NCBI GenBank assembly: GCA_964570825.1
Contig: CAZMZJ010000008.1
Location: 24,853-88,852 of the forward strand
Length of the DNA stretch: 64,000 bases
DNA from: an uncultured Lachnospiraceae bacterium
GTDB taxonomy: Bacteria > Bacillota > Clostridia > Oscillospirales > CAG-272
Direction of reading: 5' to 3'
Shown: positions 5,500 through 55,503 of the stretch, piece by piece
Layout of the letters: each line of letters opens with the position of its first letter
Numbering within the stretch: position 1 is the stretch's first letter
Position numbers and translations under genes: made by a program
The notes under the pieces: generated by a model
What the model saw: the letters and a program-made list of their open reading frames with translations, nothing else
Databases searched by the model: none
Told to the model about the DNA's origin: nothing

Positions 5500-6681
5500 A
5501 TGAAACTAATTTACTTTTTCTGCGGCGGCTGCAGACTCTGCGCCGCACCGTATGAGGCAGAGAAAATTCTTAATATCTGTTTGCATTACAGATTTGTTTA
5601 CCGCAATATGAAGCGCAGCAAGGATTTCTTCACTCTCGAATGTTCTATGTATACCGCCAATATGCTGTGCAGTGTTTGCGAAAAGTACGGTATTGCAATA
5701 AAGGTCATTGAAAAGTACGGATTGCCGGATGTTTTTATTCGTTACCGAAAGCGGATTGGAATACTTGCAGGTTTCATTATTTCCGCAGTTCTTATAATAT
5801 GGTCGGAACAGTTTGTCTGGGATATACGCGTAAAAGGATGCGAGAATATTGATGAAATTATTGTAAAAAAAGAGTTGAGCGACCAGAATTTCAGGCTTGG
5901 AACGTATATTCCCGGAATAGATATTGACATGATAGAGAACCGCGTGTTAATCTATTCGCAGGATATTGCATGGATCTCAATTAACATGAAGGGAAGCGTA
6001 GCTTATGTTGAAATCAGAGAAAAGACCGCTGAACCTGAGAAAAAGAGCGACAGGCCGGCTAATCTGATAGCTTTATGGGATGGCATGATAGAGGCAATCG
6101 AGGCGACTGAAGGAAATATCATGGTGAAAGTTGGACAGCATGTCAGAAAAGGAGAGCTTCTTGTCAGCGGAGTATACGACAGCAATGTGTGGGGCTACCG
6201 TTATACCCGTGCCGCCGGGAACGTTTATGCGCGGACTGTGCGCGAAATACACGTTGAAATACCTCTTTATTATGAGGAAAGACGCTACAGCGGCGAAGAA
6301 TACAGCGAAATCACGCTGTTTTTTTTCTCAAAGCCAATAAAACTTTACAGAAACACTGGATTTTTAGTGGGTACATATGATACAATATGTAAGGAAGAGA
6401 ACATTTGTCTTTTTGACGGAACCAGGATTCCGTTGACTGTTATAACGACAATCAACAGATGGTACACATGCGAAACATTGAAGCGTGATACAAATACCGC
6501 GATGGAACTTGCGTATGATAAGCTTGACGTCGAACTCGCAAAATTTTTGTCGGACGGTGCCGTTCTGCTCGGTAAAAATATTACATGGACGATTACAGAC
6601 GACACATATGTTCTCGACTGCACGGCGACACTGATCGAAAATATTGCCGGAATCGCTGAATTTGATGTTTCGGAAAAATAG
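5500..6681 (+). CDS. yqfD: Sporulation protein YqfD (stage IV)
   Basis: 393 aa with one central TM segment (ILAGFIISAVLIIW). The position between yqfC and phoH matches the B. subtilis order. Confidence 0.8.
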   Translation: MKLIYFFCGGCRLCAAPYEAEKILNICLHYRFVYRNMKRSKDFFTLECSMYTANMLCSVCEKYGIAIKVIEKYGLPDVFIRYRKRIGILAGFIISAVLIIWSEQFVWDIRVKGCENIDEIIVKKELSDQNFRLGTYIPGIDIDMIENRVLIYSQDIAWISINMKGSVAYVEIREKTAEPEKKSDRPANLIALWDGMIEAIEATEGNIMVKVGQHVRKGELLVSGVYDSNVWGYRYTRAAGNVYARTVREIHVEIPLYYEERRYSGEEYSEITLFFFSKPIKLYRNTGFLVGTYDTICKEENICLFDGTRIPLTVITTINRWYTCETLKRDTNTAMELAYDKLDVELAKFLSDGAVLLGKNITWTITDDTYVLDCTATLIENIAGIAEFDVSEK

Positions 6682-8194: not shown

Positions 8195-9079
8195 ATGAGA
8201 AAGACTGGATTTATCGCGATTGTGGGCAGGCCTAATGTCGGAAAATCGACATTGCTCAATGCAATTCTTGGAGAAAAAGTGGCGATCGTTTCGAATAAGC
8301 CGCAGACGACCCGCAACCGGATTACCGGCATACACACAGAAGGTGACTGTCAGTTTATCTTCATTGATACGCCCGGCATGCACAAGCCGAGAAATCTGCT
8401 CGGCGATTTTATGGTTAAGACTGCAGACGAATCCATGAAGGATGCCGACGCTGTTATACTTGTCGCCGACGCAGGCAAGCCTATAACCGATATTGAGGAA
8501 AATGTAATTGCATATATGAAGGAATCGGGAGCGGGTTCGCTGCTGGCGCTCAACAAGGTCGATCTTTACCGCCGTGAGCAGATAGCCGAGACAATCTCGG
8601 CGTATGCGGCGAAGCATAACTTTGACGCCGTAGTGCCGATATGTGCGAAAAAAGGCGAAAATGTAAAAGTGTTGCTTGACGAATGCAAACAGTTTCTATC
8701 CGAGTCCGACTGGTTTTTCCCGCCGGAAATGGTCACGGATCAGCCGGAGCGGCAGATTGCTGCTGAAATAATCCGTGAAAAACTGCTACGGACACTCGAC
8801 AAGGAAATACCTCACGGAGTCGCCGTGGTTATTGAAGATTTCAAAGATGAAGACTCGCTTATCAGCATCCGCGCCGAAATATACTGTGAAAAAGAATCTC
8901 ACAAAGGTATAATTGTCGGCAAAGGAGGGGCGGCGCTTAAGCTTGCCGGCACATACGCAAGAGAGGATCTTGAAAAGCTTTTCGGCACTAAAGTATATTT
9001 GAATCTTTGGGTCAAGGTCAAAGAGAATTGGCGCGATGATGTCGCGGCGGTAAGCAACTTTGGCTATAAAAAAGAATAA
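8195..9079 (+). CDS. era: GTPase Era
   Basis: GRPNVGKSTL (G1), DTPG (G3), NKVD (G4) and a C-terminal KH domain VGKGGAALK. Confidence 0.96.
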   Translation: MRKTGFIAIVGRPNVGKSTLLNAILGEKVAIVSNKPQTTRNRITGIHTEGDCQFIFIDTPGMHKPRNLLGDFMVKTADESMKDADAVILVADAGKPITDIEENVIAYMKESGAGSLLALNKVDLYRREQIAETISAYAAKHNFDAVVPICAKKGENVKVLLDECKQFLSESDWFFPPEMVTDQPERQIAAEIIREKLLRTLDKEIPHGVAVVIEDFKDEDSLISIRAEIYCEKESHKGIIVGKGGAALKLAGTYAREDLEKLFGTKVYLNLWVKVKENWRDDVAAVSNFGYKKE

Positions 9080-46652: not shown

Positions 46653-49055
46653 ATGAAATACGATTTTAAGGCAATTGAGGAAAAATGGCAGTCGCGCTGG
46701 GAGAGCGAGGGTGCTTTCCGCGCGAAGGACGGCTCTGATAAACCCAAATTTTATGCACTTGTGGAGTTTCCGTACCCGAGCGGCGCCGGGATGCACGTCG
46801 GACACATAAAGGCTTATTCTGGGCTTGAGGTCATTTCACGGAAGCGTAGAATGCAGGGGTACAACGTACTTTTCCCGATCGGGTTTGATGCATTCGGCCT
46901 TCCGACCGAAAACTACGCGATAAAAACCGGAGTTCACCCGAGGGCGGCAACCGATAAAAATATCGCAAAATTTACTTCTCAGCTCAAGCGCGTCGGCTTC
47001 TCGTTCGACTGGTCGCGCGTGATTGATACAACGGATGAGAGCTATTACAAGTGGACGCAGTGGATATTTCTGAAAATGTTCGAAAACGGACTTGTATTCC
47101 GCGACAAGGCGCTCGTAAACTACTGCCCGAGCTGTAAGGTTGTGCTTTCAAACGAGGACTCGCAGGGCGGAAAATGCGATATCTGCCACAGCGAGATTGT
47201 TCAGAAGTCAAAGGATGTCTGGTATCTGCGAATCACAGAGTACGCCGACAAGCTGCTCAAAGGTCTTGACGAGGTGGATTATCTTCCCAATATTCGCCAG
47301 CAGCAGGTCAACTGGATCGGCAGGTCTGCCGGAGCTTTCGCCAACTTTAGGATAAAAGGCACAGACGACAGCCTGAAAATTTACACAACGCGCCCCGATA
47401 CAATGTTCGGAGTTACCTTCATGGTTATCGCGCCCGAGCATCCGGTTATCGAAAAATACAGAAACAAGATAAAAAACATGCCGGCCATTGAGGCTTACCG
47501 CGACGAGTGCGCCAAAAAGACCGAGTTTGAACGCACACAGCTGGTCAAGGATAAAACCGGTGTGAAAATTGAAGGCATCGAAGCAATCAATCCGCTGACC
47601 GGCAAAGAAATTCCGGTTTACATAGCCGATTACGTTATGATGGGCTACGGAACCGGAGCGATAATGGCGGTTCCGGCTCACGACGAGCGCGACTATGATT
47701 TTGCAAAGAAGTTCGGACTTGAAATAATTGAAGTTATAAAAGGCGGAAACATTGCCGAGGCCGCGTATACCGGCGAGGGCGAAATGGTCAATTCCGGATT
47801 TCTCAACGGGATAAAAACAAAAGAGGAAGCTATAAACGCCGCCATAAAGAAGCTTGAAGAAATCGGAGCCGGCGAGGCCGGAGTCCAGTACAAGATGAAG
47901 GACTGGGCATTCAACCGCCAGAGATATTGGGGCGAGCCGATTCCGATTGTTCATTGCCCAAAGTGTGGTATGGTTGCCGTGCCGTATGACGAGCTGCCGC
48001 TTAAACTGCCAAAAGTCGAAAATTTCGAGCCGGGCGAGGGCGGGGAAAGCCCGCTGGCTAAAATCGAATCTTTCGTCAACTGCAAATGTCCCAAATGCGG
48101 AGGAGCGGCAAAACGTGAAACTGACACCATGCCGCAGTGGGCGGGTTCATCATGGTATTTTTTGCGCTACATCGACCCGAAGAACGATACGGCGTTTGCC
48201 GATAAGAATAAGCTGAGATACTGGCTGCCTGTCGACTGGTACAACGGCGGAATGGAACATGTGACCAGGCATATGATTTACTCGCGTTTCTGGCACAAGT
48301 TCCTCTATGATATCGGCGAGGTCCCGACCGACGAGCCGTATGCAAAGAGAACGGCGCAGGGCCTTATCTTAGGGCCTGACGGCGAAAAGATGAGCAAGTC
48401 AAAGGGGAATGTGGTTGACCCGAACGATGTGGTGGACGAATACGGCGCTGACGTGCTGCGTCTTTATATTCTTTTCATGGGCGACTATGAAAAGGCGGCT
48501 CCGTGGTCCGAGAGCAGCGTGCGCGGCTGCAAGCGGTTTCTTGACCGCGTTGCGGGACTTGCCGACATGGTGACGGGAAGCGGAGTCTCACCTGAGCTTG
48601 ACGCAAAGATGCACAAGGCAGTCAAAAAGGTGTCGGCTGACATAGACGAGATGAAATTCAACACCGCAATCGCAGCCATGATGACTCTGGTGAACGACAT
48701 ATACGAGTACGGTTCTCTGACCGTTGACGAGCTTAAAACATTTATTAAAATATTATGCCCGTTTGCTCCGCATCTTTGTGAAGAAATATGGGAGCAGCTC
48801 GGAGGGAAAGGATTTTTATCGCTGTCCGAGTGGCCTTCGTTCGATGAGGCAAAAACTGTTGATGAAAGCGTTGAAGTTGCGGTTCAGATTAACGGCAAGC
48901 TGCGCGGGACGGTGATGCTTCCGCTTGACTGTCCGCGCGACGACGCGCTTGCCGCCGTTAAGGCTGACGAAAAAATCGCGCCGATGCTCGAAGGCAAAAC
49001 AATAATCAAGGAAATCACGGTGCCGAACCGCATTGTGAATTTTGTGGTTAAATAA
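46653..49055 (+). CDS. leuS: Leucine--tRNA ligase
   Basis: 800 aa from MKYDFKAIEEKWQ; HVGH (HIGH) and KMSKS motifs and the CP1 editing domain. The track's upstream ATG 46557 adds a non-conserved 32 aa. Confidence 0.96.
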   Translation: MKYDFKAIEEKWQSRWESEGAFRAKDGSDKPKFYALVEFPYPSGAGMHVGHIKAYSGLEVISRKRRMQGYNVLFPIGFDAFGLPTENYAIKTGVHPRAATDKNIAKFTSQLKRVGFSFDWSRVIDTTDESYYKWTQWIFLKMFENGLVFRDKALVNYCPSCKVVLSNEDSQGGKCDICHSEIVQKSKDVWYLRITEYADKLLKGLDEVDYLPNIRQQQVNWIGRSAGAFANFRIKGTDDSLKIYTTRPDTMFGVTFMVIAPEHPVIEKYRNKIKNMPAIEAYRDECAKKTEFERTQLVKDKTGVKIEGIEAINPLTGKEIPVYIADYVMMGYGTGAIMAVPAHDERDYDFAKKFGLEIIEVIKGGNIAEAAYTGEGEMVNSGFLNGIKTKEEAINAAIKKLEEIGAGEAGVQYKMKDWAFNRQRYWGEPIPIVHCPKCGMVAVPYDELPLKLPKVENFEPGEGGESPLAKIESFVNCKCPKCGGAAKRETDTMPQWAGSSWYFLRYIDPKNDTAFADKNKLRYWLPVDWYNGGMEHVTRHMIYSRFWHKFLYDIGEVPTDEPYAKRTAQGLILGPDGEKMSKSKGNVVDPNDVVDEYGADVLRLYILFMGDYEKAAPWSESSVRGCKRFLDRVAGLADMVTGSGVSPELDAKMHKAVKKVSADIDEMKFNTAIAAMMTLVNDIYEYGSLTVDELKTFIKILCPFAPHLCEEIWEQLGGKGFLSLSEWPSFDEAKTVDESVEVAVQINGKLRGTVMLPLDCPRDDALAAVKADEKIAPMLEGKTIIKEITVPNRIVNFVVK

Positions 49056-51956: not shown

Positions 51957-52106
51957 GGGAACACCTCCCTTATTCAGTATAACTTATTTTAACATATTTT
52001 TTATTAGATTGCAAGGACGGCTTTTAGCGTTTTGCAGCCGCGTTCACAAAATAGTTACAAATTGTCAATAAACTGTTTATTATTTTGTCGGCTTGGCTCG
52101 GAATTT

Positions 52107-53771
52107 TCAGGCGGTCTCAATCGAGGCAGCGTCCTGCAGATTTTTTGCCTCGATTGCCATCTCGCGGAGCTTGTATTTGAGTATTTTACCCGCCGCATTC
52201 ATCGGGAAGGCGTCGATAAAGGTGACGTATGCAGGCACCTTGTGCTTCGCCATCGAGGCGCGCACATACTCCTTGATTTCGTCTTCGGTTATGCTTACAC
52301 CTTCCTTTGGGATCACAAACGCCATAACCTCCTCGCCGTAGACCTTCGAGGGAACGCCCACAACCTGAACGTCGCGGACTTTCGGGTGCGTGTAGATGAA
52401 GTCCTCGATTTCCTTCGGATATATGTTCTCGCCGCCACGGATTATCATGTCCTTGATGCGGCCGGTTATTTTATAATAGCCGTCGGCGTCGACCGTAGCA
52501 AGGTCGCCGGTGTGCAGCCAGCCGTCCTTGTCTATTGCCTGTGCGGTCGCCTCGGGCATTTTATAGTAGCCCTTCATTACATTGTACCCGCGGGCGCAGA
52601 ACTCCCCGACCTTGCCCGGCCCCAGCGTTTCGCCTGTCACAGGGTCGATTATTTTGGTTTCCACGCCCGGAAAGGCGCGGCCGACTGTATTGACGCGGCG
52701 TTCGATGCTGTCGTCCGTCGTTGTCTGCGTGCATCCGGGAGAGGCCTCGGTCTGGCCGTATGTAATGGTTATCTCCCGCATCCCCATTTCGTCTATAACC
52801 TGCCGCATGACCTTGATAGGACAGGGAGAGCCCGCCATAATTCCCGTGCGCAGATTGAACTTGAATTCCTTAAAGCGAGGATGCTCGAGTATCGCGATGA
52901 ACATGGTCGGAACGCCGTGCAGAGCCGTGCACTTTTCCTTCTGGCAGGCTTCCATAACCTTTACGGGACTGTAGTAATTCACGGGAACCATTGTAGTTGC
53001 GTGAGTAATGCACGCCATCTGCCCGAGCACAAGGCCGAAACAGTGGAAAAAGGGAACCGTGATGCAGAGCTTATCCTTAGTCGAAAATTTCATGCAGTCG
53101 CCGATTGTCTTGCCGTTATTGAGTATATTATAGTGGCTGAGCATGACTCCCTTCGGAAATCCCGTGGTCCCGGAGGTGTACTGCATATTTACCGTGTCGT
53201 GGCAGGATATGCCGCGGCGGGCCGCCGCGTATTCCTCATCGGATATTCCGGCGGCAAGCGCGGGAAGCTCGTTCCAGTTATACATCCCGGGGTAGCTGTC
53301 CTCGTCGATGGTAATTATGGTTTTAAGCATGGGAAGGCGTTTGCAGTTGTGTTCGGCCGTCTTGCCCTCCGCGGCTATTTCGGGGCAGAGGCTGTTTATG
53401 ATTTCTATATAGCTGACGTCCTTGAACCCGTCGCACATGACGAGCATCTTTGTGTCCGACTGCTTGAGCAGGTATTCGGCTTCGTGGATTTTATACGCCG
53501 TGTTGACAGTGACAAGCACAGCGCCTATCTTTGCGCAGGCATAAAGCGTGAGCATCCACTGAGGATAGTTGGTCGCCCAGATGGCCACATGGTCGCCGCG
53601 CTTTATCCCGAGCGCAAGAAACGCTTTGGCAATCATATGAATTTCATCGTTGAACTCGCGGTATGTGCGGCGGTATTCAAATTTGTCGGTATAAATAACC
53701 GCGGGCTGGTCCGGATGCTCGGCCGCCATCTTATCCATCCATTCGCCGATTGTAATATCGATAAATTCCAT
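52107..53771 (-). CDS. AMP-dependent acyl-CoA synthetase, YngI/ACSF2-like (short/medium-chain type)
   Basis: 554 aa; YTSGTTGFPKGVMLSH, YGQTE, GWLHTGDL, IIRGGENIYPKEIE, PMNAAGKILK. AAGGAGA RBS. Preceded by a T-box leader. Confidence 0.88.
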   Translation of the reverse strand: MEFIDITIGEWMDKMAAEHPDQPAVIYTDKFEYRRTYREFNDEIHMIAKAFLALGIKRGDHVAIWATNYPQWMLTLYACAKIGAVLVTVNTAYKIHEAEYLLKQSDTKMLVMCDGFKDVSYIEIINSLCPEIAAEGKTAEHNCKRLPMLKTIITIDEDSYPGMYNWNELPALAAGISDEEYAAARRGISCHDTVNMQYTSGTTGFPKGVMLSHYNILNNGKTIGDCMKFSTKDKLCITVPFFHCFGLVLGQMACITHATTMVPVNYYSPVKVMEACQKEKCTALHGVPTMFIAILEHPRFKEFKFNLRTGIMAGSPCPIKVMRQVIDEMGMREITITYGQTEASPGCTQTTTDDSIERRVNTVGRAFPGVETKIIDPVTGETLGPGKVGEFCARGYNVMKGYYKMPEATAQAIDKDGWLHTGDLATVDADGYYKITGRIKDMIIRGGENIYPKEIEDFIYTHPKVRDVQVVGVPSKVYGEEVMAFVIPKEGVSITEDEIKEYVRASMAKHKVPAYVTFIDAFPMNAAGKILKYKLREMAIEAKNLQDAASIETA

Positions 53772-53823
53772 ATAAATTCTCCTTGTGTTGTGGTATGTTA
53801 TGTGTTGTTATGCTGATTTATAT

Positions 53824-53861
53824 AAAAAAGTCCCGGAAGGCTTAATTAAGCCTTCCGGGAC
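53824..53861 (-). terminator. Intrinsic terminator of the T-box expression platform
   Basis: Perfect 14-bp stem gtcccggaaggctt/aagccttccgggac, 4-nt loop, then UUUUUU, 50 nt upstream of the acyl-CoA synthetase ATG. Confidence 0.92.
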
Positions 53862-54127
53862 GAATAAACTTATTATTCGCGGTACCACCCGAATTCGTCT
53901 TACGACGCCCTTTCGGACACTGTCATGTCCTCATCCCGGTAACGGGGGAAACCGCGGCAGCCTACTTGACCTTATTGGCGTTCGGTGCCGTGCGCGGCTT
54001 TTATGCCGGCGGAGTGAGTTCGGTCTGTCTTCCGGGGGACTTCTCAGCTTGCCGTCCCTCTCTGTGCCGTATGACCGGGTTTTGCCCCGACCTACTTTTT
54101 CTCCGTTAACGCATTTTCAATATTATA
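53824..54127 (-). promoter_or_regulatory. T-box riboswitch leader, specifier codon CUC (Leu)
   Basis: On the minus strand: Stem I base CGGAG (54105-54101)/CUCCG (54014-54010). Specifier loop with AGUA (54096-54093) and GAA-CUC-A (54021-54015). AG bay AGAGAG (54063-54058). Distal loop GCUGAGAA. AGUA-II. F-box CCGUUA (53945-53940). T-box GGGUGGUACCGCG (53890-53878), with a UGGU bulge complementary to ACCA. Antiterminator helices are mutually exclusive with the terminator. Confidence 0.9.
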
Positions 54128-54133
54128 TGAATA

Positions 54134-54162
54134 ATTATAAGTAATTCTGTCCGGTTTGTCAA
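54134..54162 (-). promoter_or_regulatory. SigA-type promoter driving the T-box leader
   Basis: Perfect TTGACA, 17 nt, TATAAT on the minus strand, about 25 nt upstream of Stem I. Confidence 0.8.
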
Positions 54163-54189
54163 TTGTAAATATTGTACAATATGTCCGGC

Positions 54190-55503
54190 TTATTTTACAA
54201 ATTCGTTGTATATTGCTTTGAGCGCGGTTTCAAAATCGTTCTCGTCCACGCCTATTATTATGTTGAGCTCGCACGAGCCCTGGTCGATCATGCGTATATT
54301 GACGTCGGCCGCGGATATTGCGCCGAATATTCTCGCGGCGATCCCTTTTGCCTTGACCATGCCGCGCCCGACGACGGCGATAAGCGCAAGACCGTCCTCG
54401 ATTGTAACGCTGTCCGCCTTTGTCGCTCTGTTAAGCTGCGTCAGCAGCTTGTCGCGCCTGCCTTCAAGATCGGCTGTCGGGAGAATCAGGCTCATTGTGT
54501 CAATGCCCGATGGCAGATGCTCGAACGAAAGCTCGTTGTCCTCGAGTATCTCGAGTACTTTGCGGCCAAAGCCGATTTCCGAGTTCATCATATCCTTGAT
54601 GATGGTGATTACCGAGAAGCCGTGCTTTCCGGCGATGCCTGTTATCACGCGCTTATGGTCGTATGCGGGAGCGTTCGCCACTATCATCGTGCCTTTGTCT
54701 TCGGGAGCGTTCGTGTTCCTTATATTGATCGGAATACCTGCGTGGCGGACCGGGAATATGGCGTCCTCGTGCAGCACCGTCGCACCCATGTAAGAAAGCT
54801 CGCGCAGCTCGCGGTAGGTTATCATATCTATCACGCAGGGGTCCTTGACAATGCGGGGATCAGCCATCATGAAGCCCGACACGTCGGTCCAGTTCTCATA
54901 TATGTCCGCGTCGGCAGCGCGCGCAACTATCGAACCGGTAACGTCGGATCCGCCGCGGGAGAACGTCTTGATTGTGCCGTTCGGCATCGAACCGTAAAAC
55001 CCCGGAATGACCGCGTTCTTGTGGCTGCACAGCTCGCAGCGAAGCGCTGTGTCGGTCTTGTCTTCGTCGAATGTGCCGTTTTCCCTGAAGAATATCACGT
55101 TCTCGGCGTCGATAAAGTCAAAGCCGAGATATTTCGCAAGTATTATGCCGTTCAGGTATTCGCCGCGGCTTGCCGCAAAGTCGCGCCCGGAGCGGTGAAG
55201 AAAGGCGTTTTTTATATACTCGAACTCGCCGGCAAGGTTTATGTTAAGCCCCAGCTCGGATATAATCGAATTGTAGCGGTTTACTATCTCCCCGTAGGTC
55301 TTCTCGAAATTGCCGCCGGAATGGATTTCGTCATAGCAGCGGTAGAGCAGATCGGTGATTTTTGTGTCGCCGGAAAAGCGTTTGCCCGGCGCGGACGGAA
55401 CCACGAAACGGCGGGACGGGTCGGACTTTATGATTGAGGCGACCTGCCGGAACTGCTTTGCGTCGGCAAGTGACGTGCCTCCGAATTTTACAACCTTCAG
55501 CAT
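54190..55503 (-). CDS. Aspartate kinase (monofunctional, two C-terminal ACT domains)
   Basis: 437 aa; VVKFGGTSL, SRGGSDVTG, and ACT regions ending NIRMIDQGSCELNIIIGV. Confidence 0.92.
   Translation of the reverse strand: MLKVVKFGGTSLADAKQFRQVASIIKSDPSRRFVVPSAPGKRFSGDTKITDLLYRCYDEIHSGGNFEKTYGEIVNRYNSIISELGLNINLAGEFEYIKNAFLHRSGRDFAASRGEYLNGIILAKYLGFDFIDAENVIFFRENGTFDEDKTDTALRCELCSHKNAVIPGFYGSMPNGTIKTFSRGGSDVTGSIVARAADADIYENWTDVSGFMMADPRIVKDPCVIDMITYRELRELSYMGATVLHEDAIFPVRHAGIPINIRNTNAPEDKGTMIVANAPAYDHKRVITGIAGKHGFSVITIIKDMMNSEIGFGRKVLEILEDNELSFEHLPSGIDTMSLILPTADLEGRRDKLLTQLNRATKADSVTIEDGLALIAVVGRGMVKAKGIAARIFGAISAADVNIRMIDQGSCELNIIIGVDENDFETALKAIYNEFVK

Follow-up and report, generated by a model that had tools for sequence, protein, structure and literature searches.

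Leucine-specific T-box riboswitches are known from leuS and the ilv-leu operon in Bacillus subtilis and other Firmicutes, and from leuA in Clostridia and Geobacter, where their targets are aminoacyl-tRNA synthetase, de novo biosynthesis or transporter genes. The RegPrecise tables give leuS, ilvBHC-leuABCD, yvbW and leuA as Leu T-box targets, and the T-box of Geobacter leuA has been tied to tRNA-Leu(GAG). The locus considered here lies in a 64,000-nucleotide stretch of contig CAZMZJ010000008.1 from an uncultured Lachnospiraceae bacterium (hereafter the window, numbered from its first letter), and consists of a T-box leader on the minus strand followed by a gene for an acyl-coenzyme A (acyl-CoA) ligase of the YngI/ACSF2 type and a gene for a TIM-barrel protein. 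The leader resembles the known Leu T-boxes in its Rfam family (RF00230), its CUC specifier codon, its UGGU bulge and the logic of its terminator and antiterminator. Unlike them it has a degenerate kink-turn (K-turn) and a score below the gathering threshold of the family, being otherwise an ordinary Leu T-box, and whereas their targets serve tRNA charging, biosynthesis or transport, the genes behind this one encode the ligase and the TIM barrel. The element is almost certainly a transcriptional T-box specific for a CUC-reading tRNA-Leu. What it regulates is less firmly established, and here we lean towards a salvage pathway under T-box control, in which branched-chain fatty acids would be turned into branched-chain amino acids by the ligase, a 2-oxoisovalerate:ferredoxin oxidoreductase (VOR) and the aminotransferase IlvE.

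The leader, which comprises Stem I, a Stem II region, Stem III and the antiterminator (54118-53853, minus strand), is preceded immediately by a sigma-70-type promoter, TTGACA-17-TATAAT (54162-54134, minus strand), that agrees with the consensus at 12 of 12 positions. In a permissive scan of positions 53700-54250 it matched RF00230 over the entire model (1-219 of 219) with 74.8 bits and an E value of 2e-16, and the leader as a whole folds with a z score of -4.4. Stem I (54010-54105, minus strand) is closed by CGGAG (54105-54101) paired with CUCCG (54014-54010), as judged from the sequence, the cmscan alignment and a comparison with 19 orthologous leaders. These two strands frame a specifier loop whose 5' side, AAAAAGUA, contains the AGUA of the S-turn (54096-54093, minus strand), and whose 3' side is read as GAA-CUC-A in the cmscan register, placing the leucine codon CUC at 54018-54016 (minus strand) with the purine A next to it at 54015; the loop thus holds both a codon followed by a purine and the AGUA motif. 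Further out, the AG bay AGAGAG (54063-54058, minus strand) and the distal loop GCUGAGAA (54048-54041, minus strand) align in cmscan to the AGAGA and distal-loop columns of the model, so that the distal platform of Stem I is present, and the AGAGA columns are invariant in an alignment of 20 leaders. The motif CCGUUA was located in the sequence at 53945-53940 (minus strand). All of the T-box elements that the first-pass annotation had claimed for this leader (promoter, Stem I, specifier, AG bay, distal loop, core and terminator) were found where it had placed them, and its choice of CUC as the specifier agrees with both the cmscan register and the invariance of the codon in orthologous leaders.

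The regulatory half of the leader is equally legible. The T-box core GGGUGGUACCGCG (53890-53878, minus strand), the sole copy in the 64-kb window, falls within an antiterminator helix (53893-53854, minus strand; -14 kcal/mol, 0.73 of the ensemble) with a 7-nt bulge, UGGUACC, and the UGGU of this bulge (N = U) fits the ACCA 3' end of a tRNA with discriminator A. A terminator scan identified an intrinsic terminator with a 14-bp stem, a 4-nt loop and U6 at 53861-53824 (minus strand), which lies in a 79-nt platform whose fold reaches -35 kcal/mol (z -5.9), a value equalled by none of 200 shuffled sequences. The segment GUCCCGG is common to the terminator and to the 3' strand of the antiterminator, and since both structures need it they exclude each other; folding of the two alternatives bears out the competition between a 14-bp terminator with U6 and an antiterminator that had been described for this leader. 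When leucine is plentiful, charged tRNA-Leu would be unable to stabilise the antiterminator and the 14-bp terminator would form, ending transcription 52 nt 5' of the ligase ATG. When leucine is scarce, the anticodon of uncharged tRNA-Leu would pair with CUC in Stem I while its ACCA end pairs with the UGGU bulge, and the antiterminator held in this way by the tRNA would let RNA polymerase read through the ligase gene and probably through the TIM-barrel gene too. No tRNA genes were found in the 64-kb window. The window also contains leuS (about 46653-49055), which, as had been supposed, lacks a T-box, since a search for the T-box core across all 64 kb returned the single copy in the ligase leader.

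The gathering score of RF00230 is 93 bits, and it is on this point that the test proposed at first pass divides: the full-length match stands, with its E value of 2e-16, and the threshold is missed. Consequently, as 74.8 bits lies under 93, a default gathering-level Rfam scan of the whole window gave zero matches, T-box included. The shortfall stems mainly from a non-canonical Stem I base, at which the canonical K-turn (GA motif) is absent. In its place the leader carries a degenerate motif, GCGUUAACGGAG on the 5' side and CUCCGCCGGC on the 3' side, compared with UGA...GAGC in the orthologues, such that UAA replaces the expected UGA and the GA of the 3' side is missing, which cmscan aligns as CUCC---GC. 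The predicted folds suggest a small hairpin inserted at the base of Stem I. The low score, the degenerate K-turn and the lack of a T-box in many orthologues would all suit a leader that no longer regulates, in which case the gene would encode a medium-chain ligase of general use, or one for acetoacetate, with a purely historical tie to leucine. We regard such decay as highly improbable: the specifier, AG bay, distal loop, bulge, antiterminator and very stable terminator are all intact, the promoter retains every one of its 12 consensus positions, CUC is kept across distant lineages, and a terminator of -35 kcal/mol without antitermination would silence the gene.

The ligase itself (554 aa; 53771-52107, minus strand) has an AAGGAG ribosome-binding site 8 nt 5' of its ATG, and its AMP-binding (PF00501, E 2e-94) and AMP-binding_C (PF13193, E 6e-20) domains span the full length of the protein. 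A 594-aa open reading frame on the plus strand (52032-53816), which longest-frame calling wrongly prefers, was rejected as an antisense shadow of the ligase gene. The best NCBIfam family is PRK12583, at 758 bits against 435 bits for the runner-up, and the earlier placement of the enzyme among AMP-dependent synthetases of the YngI/ACSF2 group is upheld by this ranking, though the score is under the curated cutoff of 832. In the genome collection 568 relatives of the ligase were confirmed. Its nearest relatives in the PDB are feruloyl-, malonyl- and oxalyl-CoA ligases, whose modest scores are uninformative about the substrate.

Another comparison is with the ligases of liu clusters, the group of B. 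subtilis YngI, ACSF2 and PRK12583, with which the window enzyme shares PRK12583 as best family and, in the case of Geobacter-type enzymes, 57-60% sequence identity. In P. putida, fitness data make the liu-adjacent PP_4063 one of two candidates for the attachment of CoA to isovalerate (bioRxiv 10.1101/2020.07.04.188060). The Geobacter-type orthologues end a cluster that runs enoyl-CoA hydratase, MCC-alpha-like biotin carboxylase, HMG-CoA lyase, ligase. By annotation, YngI and PP_4063 probably belong to this same ligase subfamily. The liu-cluster ligases are catabolic, belong to respiring bacteria and have no T-box, whereas the window enzyme stands behind a leucine-starvation T-box in anaerobic Clostridia; its predicted induction by leucine starvation implies an anabolic use of the same acyl-CoA. 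As isovalerate appears to be the sole acid that is sensible both in a leucine-catabolism cluster and in a leucine-starvation response, we propose that the ligase of the window is an isovalerate--CoA ligase.

The pairing of a Leu T-box with this ligase is not peculiar to the window. The T-box core lies 65-175 nt 5' of a ligase orthologue in 21 genome loci (L001-4, L006, L007, L009-11, L017, L020, L021, L023, L025, L029, L030, L037, L046, L052, L068 and L072; loci are cited by number throughout) and farther 5', ahead of a fusion or an operon, in L024, L035 and L036, giving 24 loci in the Clostridia and Peptococcaceae, to which a digester organism can be added. The hosts include Oscillospiraceae, Ruminiclostridium hungatei, Marvinbryantia formatexigens, Christensenellaceae, Acutalibacteraceae and Desulfofundulus. 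Specifiers were taken from the Rfam alignment register, MAFFT column counts and visual reading, the automated specifier parser being unreliable. The specifier columns are invariantly CTC in a 20-sequence alignment in which the flanking columns vary, and CUC was also read in L001, L024, L035, L036, L037 and L081, so that all 25 YngI-type leaders carry CUC. Seven related leaders in six loci were scored with Rfam, at 92-140 bits (six of them Leu and one, from L035, Ile). The question raised at first pass, whether related synthetases bear Leu, Ile or Val T-boxes, is therefore answered in the affirmative: the ligase orthologues have Leu specifiers alone, and the Ile and Val specifiers belong to a sister ligase family. 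Orthologues from Desulfuromonadota and Methanobacterium had no T-box.

The sister family came to light through L035, a locus from the Acutalibacteraceae with a second T-box (8783-9034; 93.6 bits) whose specifier is AUC. Strong promoters occupy the equivalent position before both of the T-boxes of this locus. The Ile T-box precedes a 753-aa protein with helix-turn-helix (HTH_3), Cupin_2 and AMP-binding domains, and this HTH-cupin ligase, used as a query against metagenome contigs, yielded 80 loci, sampled from gut, rumen and digesters. Most of the HTH-cupin ligases that are at least 56% identical to the query have a T-box, and a local alignment of their leaders gave AUC (Ile) in 26 and GUA, GUC or GUG (Val) in about 23; the Rfam register likewise reads AUC in L084, and GUA or GUC in L098, L106 and L126. 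About 15 contigs carry tandem paralogues, a T-box(Ile)-ligase followed by a T-box(Val)-ligase, and in four (L094, L095, L100 and L136) a YngI-type ligase that shares 57-73% identity with the window enzyme stands immediately 5' of the tandem pair, the one in L136 being fused to a TIM barrel. With Leu, Ile and Val specifiers on distinct ligase genes, there appears to be one T-box-controlled ligase for each branched-chain amino acid.

Several features of the HTH-cupin proteins may be recorded alongside. The family (roughly 750 aa; L035:8783-11372 and L084-L136) joins an XRE-type HTH and a cupin to an AMP-binding ligase. A subgroup about 47% identical to the query (L130, L133-L135 and L138-L163) lacks the T-box, and its neighbours resemble proB, proA and proC-like proline-biosynthesis genes, as judged from N-terminal sequences alone; T-boxes may be lacking altogether from the phylum to which these contigs belong. 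In L115 (149-360) a weak T-box match of 42 bits lies 5' of an HTH-cupin ligase, with a Stem I seemingly cut down to a hairpin, GGAG-CCAGUCA-CUCC, in which GUC (Val) would sit in the terminal loop, an arrangement that recalls the T-boxes with ultrashort Stem I.

It is the surroundings of these ligases that connect them to amino acid synthesis. In L085, L090, L092 and L105 the gene order is ligase, P-loop protein, ferredoxin, VorB, with intergenic gaps of 3-23 nt in L085, and in L145 VorB lies 3' of the ligase and the P-loop gene is absent. The VorB proteins score 542-565 bits against NF005507, for which the cutoff is 399, and contain POR_N and PFOR_II domains; the ferredoxin of these clusters has 68 aa and two [4Fe-4S] sites. 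In L112, IlvE (476 bits, cutoff 307) lies directly 3' of the ligase, and IlvE is also found near Leu-type ligases in L017, L022 and L025. L035 brings the two branches together within one 10-kb stretch that includes VorB. Its first module consists of promoter, T-box(Leu CUC), LeuA, a ligase with a TIM barrel fused to its N-terminus (TIM~ligase) and an Amidohydro_2 protein, and its second of promoter, T-box(Ile AUC), HTH-cupin ligase, P-loop protein, ferredoxin and VorB. The P-loop protein, a CbiA/ParA-like NTPase of about 222 aa that recurs between the T-box ligase and ferredoxin-VorB (L085:4779-5450, L035:11505-12164 and six more loci), may help in the maturation of VOR or act as an accessory protein to it.

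These clusters hold the very steps that the classical physiology of branched-chain fatty acid conversion to amino acids predicts, namely a CoA ligase, VorB with ferredoxin, and IlvE. The classical work dealt with physiology and not with genes or regulation, whereas here a candidate ligase can be assigned to each branch by its T-box specifier. In the salvage route that we favour, the YngI-type ligase of the Leu branch would activate isovalerate with ATP and CoA, while the HTH-cupin ligases would activate 2-methylbutyrate in the Ile branch and isobutyrate in the Val branch. Reductive carboxylation of the acyl-CoA by VOR would give the 2-oxo acid, from which IlvE would make the branched-chain amino acid by transamination. 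To place VOR under an Ile T-box would be sensible only if the enzyme ran in the reductive, biosynthetic direction.

The second gene of the window locus fits this scheme less readily. It encodes a xylose-isomerase-like TIM barrel (269 aa; 51956-51147, minus strand; PF01261, E 1e-27) and is separated from the ligase gene by a 150-nt spacer (52106-51957, minus strand) in which the terminator scan found no terminator, a weak promoter-like site is present at 52014-51986 and the fold is no better than that of shuffled sequences (z -0.6). The positions of TIM-barrel genes were tallied across 80 related genome loci, in 25 of which the barrel is near or joined to the ligase. A homologue lies directly 3' of the ligase in L001, L002, L004, L008, L011, L012, L014 and L028, and one gene farther away in L006, L007 and L010; in 14 loci the TIM barrel forms the N-terminal part of an in-frame fusion with the ligase, a protein of 829-861 aa (L013, L018, L022, L024, L026, L032, L033, L035, L042, L054, L056, L058, L077 and L079), and in a widespread digester organism (L081-83) the two genes are 18 nt apart. 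This recurrent adjacency and fusion marks the ligase and the TIM barrel as a functional pair. The statement at first pass that the ligase is the only gene under T-box control must accordingly be given up, as the next gene follows without a terminator and is a conserved partner, neighbour to the ligase in about 9 loci and fused with it in 14; in the window the T-box most likely governs both genes, which are probably co-transcribed. The genes neighbouring the fusions are heterogeneous, and scanning the fusion loci with Rfam gave no T-box at gathering level.

The fold of the TIM barrel speaks to its function in general terms only. Its AlphaFold model is of high confidence (mean predicted local distance difference test score 96.6), and its structural matches, AsbF, IolI and ketose 3-epimerases, are generic (TM scores of 0.7-0.8, 15-23% identity); a PDB sequence search together with a fold search using the predicted structure returned such fold matches and nothing specific to a substrate. 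Across 40 homologues, residues E144, D172, H199 and E242 do not vary, and they may correspond to the Glu-Asp-His-Glu metal tetrad of the fold. The nearest solved relative is AsbF, the 3-dehydroshikimate dehydratase of petrobactin synthesis (E 2e-10, TM 0.78, 23% identity). Together with its partner, the adenylating enzyme AsbC, AsbF provides a precedent for a xylose-isomerase fold beside an adenylate-forming enzyme. The two pairs differ in ligase subfamily, pathway and regulation, and equivalence of substrates is unlikely.

The TIM barrel is not the only protein that accompanies the Leu-type ligases. An Amidohydro_2 protein stands beside them in L004, L008, L011, L035, L079, L092 and L095, and in L035, L056 and L079 the fused TIM~ligase gene is preceded by LeuA. 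In these last three loci the order LeuA, TIM~ligase, Amidohydro_2 is repeated (L035:3721-8711, L056:192-4096 and L079:2-3490), tying an enzyme of de novo leucine synthesis to the ligase module, in one case (L035) behind a Leu T-box. It is conceivable, given this company, that under the same regulation the ligase and TIM barrel, often with Amidohydro_2 and LeuA, act on an acid other than isovalerate in an undescribed pathway of leucine supply or of a leucine precursor, for instance on a hydroxy, keto or dicarboxylic acid made or consumed by the TIM barrel or the amidohydrolase. The partner is joined to the ligase in one protein in 14 genomes and is its neighbour in about 12, its invariant residues, which resemble the metal tetrad of the fold, give it the look of an active catalyst, AsbF reportedly makes an acid that its partner then adenylates, the three-gene order recurs, and the chemistry of ligase, VOR and IlvE needs neither TIM barrel nor Amidohydro_2. 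We nevertheless hold such a pathway to be unlikely, because about 12 loci with a T-box(Leu) ligase have no TIM barrel nearby, the orthologues of 57-60% identity sit in leucine-catabolism clusters without one, and the neighbouring Ile and Val ligases tie directly to VOR and IlvE.

A different destination for the product has also to be weighed. Isovaleryl-CoA might serve mainly to prime the synthesis of iso-branched fatty acids, sparing scarce leucine and yielding none. An acyl-ACP (acyl carrier protein) thioesterase gene lies directly 3' of the ligase in L023 and L029, and rumen bacteria route branched-chain volatile fatty acids to lipids as well as to amino acids. Staphylococcus aureus MbcS is reportedly an ANL-family branched-chain carboxylate CoA ligase that supplies lipid primers and so supports branched-chain fatty-acid synthesis; like MbcS, the window ligase would perform an ANL-type activation of a branched short-chain acid, its activity here being a proposal. 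MbcS is not known to be under T-box control. A role confined to lipid priming nonetheless seems to us quite improbable, as the targets of T-boxes normally restore tRNA charging, the Ile and Val ligases of the sister family share operons with VOR and IlvE, which yield amino acids, and LeuA lies within the Leu T-box operon of L035. The lipid and amino acid roles are in any case compatible with each other.

Returning to salvage by ligase, VOR and IlvE, several observations beyond the sub-gathering score and missing K-turn of the window leader weigh against it. A T-box was undetected in about half of the assessable Firmicute orthologues, most of the fusions included. VOR was found next to a Leu-type ligase only in L035 among the 80 genome loci, the link elsewhere running through the sister family, and no VOR, leu or ilv genes were recognised among the open reading frames of the window, of which seven near the locus were compared with family libraries and the rest judged by N-terminal sequence. 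The ligase of the Geobacter-type cluster could equally be an acetoacetate ligase, although acetoacetate is disfavoured for the Leu-type enzyme as it has no role in leucine supply. Finally, TIM barrel, Amidohydro_2 and LeuA have no part in the three-step route, and being surplus to it they raise the possibility that the leucine branch uses added chemistry or another acid. With these points in mind, we give roughly even chances to the fullest version of the model, in which Clostridia of gut, rumen and digester would possess the complete salvage pathway as a T-box regulon with a branch for each amino acid, three ligases feeding one VOR with its ferredoxin and then IlvE. In this version the window gene would be the long-missing isovalerate-activating enzyme, and the obligate TIM-barrel partner and frequent Amidohydro_2 protein would be signs of extra, undescribed chemistry in the leucine branch.

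Some further features of these loci deserve mention in their own right. In Desulfofundulus thermosubterraneus DSM 16057 (L037:5577-5866, NZ_FQZM01000016.1) the Leu T-box leader, which scores 119.7 bits, contains a complete tRNA-Ala(GGC) gene (5746-5820) as a 76-nt insertion in its Stem III loop. The gene next after the ligase in this locus is leuS, whose product is 44% identical to the LeuS of the window; a ligase-leuS operon was considered and set aside, as a GC-rich hairpin and a U-rich tract separate the two genes, and we claim adjacency alone. In the window an aspartate kinase gene (54190-55503, minus strand) lies directly 5' of the T-box, and in L013 (1454-4837) the TIM~ligase fusion is flanked by a protein that clusters with this kinase and by homoserine dehydrogenase-like and homoserine kinase-like reading frames, as judged from their N-terminal sequences. 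The neighbourhood of the ligase with genes of the aspartate family of amino acids is thus loose and recurrent. Between 54190 and 63400, a segment including the aspartate kinase, an ABC exporter and others, third-codon-position GC is 0.62-0.70, a step up in composition from the values of about 0.45-0.55 that prevail over most of the remaining window.

The claim made at first pass that the target lies outside the known functions of T-boxes accords with the compilations we consulted. The RegPrecise tables, Wels 2008 with its supplements and the TBDB paper contain no link between a T-box and an acyl-CoA ligase or VOR, and the terms CoA and acyl do not occur in Wels 2008 or its supplements; an earlier mention in Vitreschak 2008 or Gutierrez-Preciado 2009 is possible. 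No literature was found that pairs a T-box with isovalerate, or with a ferredoxin oxidoreductase in the sense of salvage, and the literature searched gave no gene assignment for the branched-acid activation step. What we describe is a standard riboswitch class attached to a new class of function, extending to a three-branch regulon.

Isovalerate, 2-methylbutyrate and isobutyrate are needed by, or useful to, cellulolytic rumen bacteria and many gut anaerobes. That these branched short-chain acids are built into leucine, isoleucine and valine is knowledge about sixty years old, dating from the 1960s. T-box specifiers act here as built-in amino acid labels, and the Leu, Ile and Val ligases that lie by VOR and IlvE provide genes with predicted substrates for this old physiology. 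If the salvage model holds, the repertoire of the T-box would widen from aminoacyl-tRNA synthetases, de novo biosynthesis and transport to the salvage of carboxylic acids, and the leader-ligase pairing may offer a genomic marker of dependence on branched-chain volatile fatty acids, with a bearing on ruminant nutrition and gut cross-feeding. Furthermore, the TIM barrel and the Amidohydro_2 protein stand out as uncharacterised enzymes closely bound to the leucine branch. An old question of physiology would thereby become testable gene by gene.

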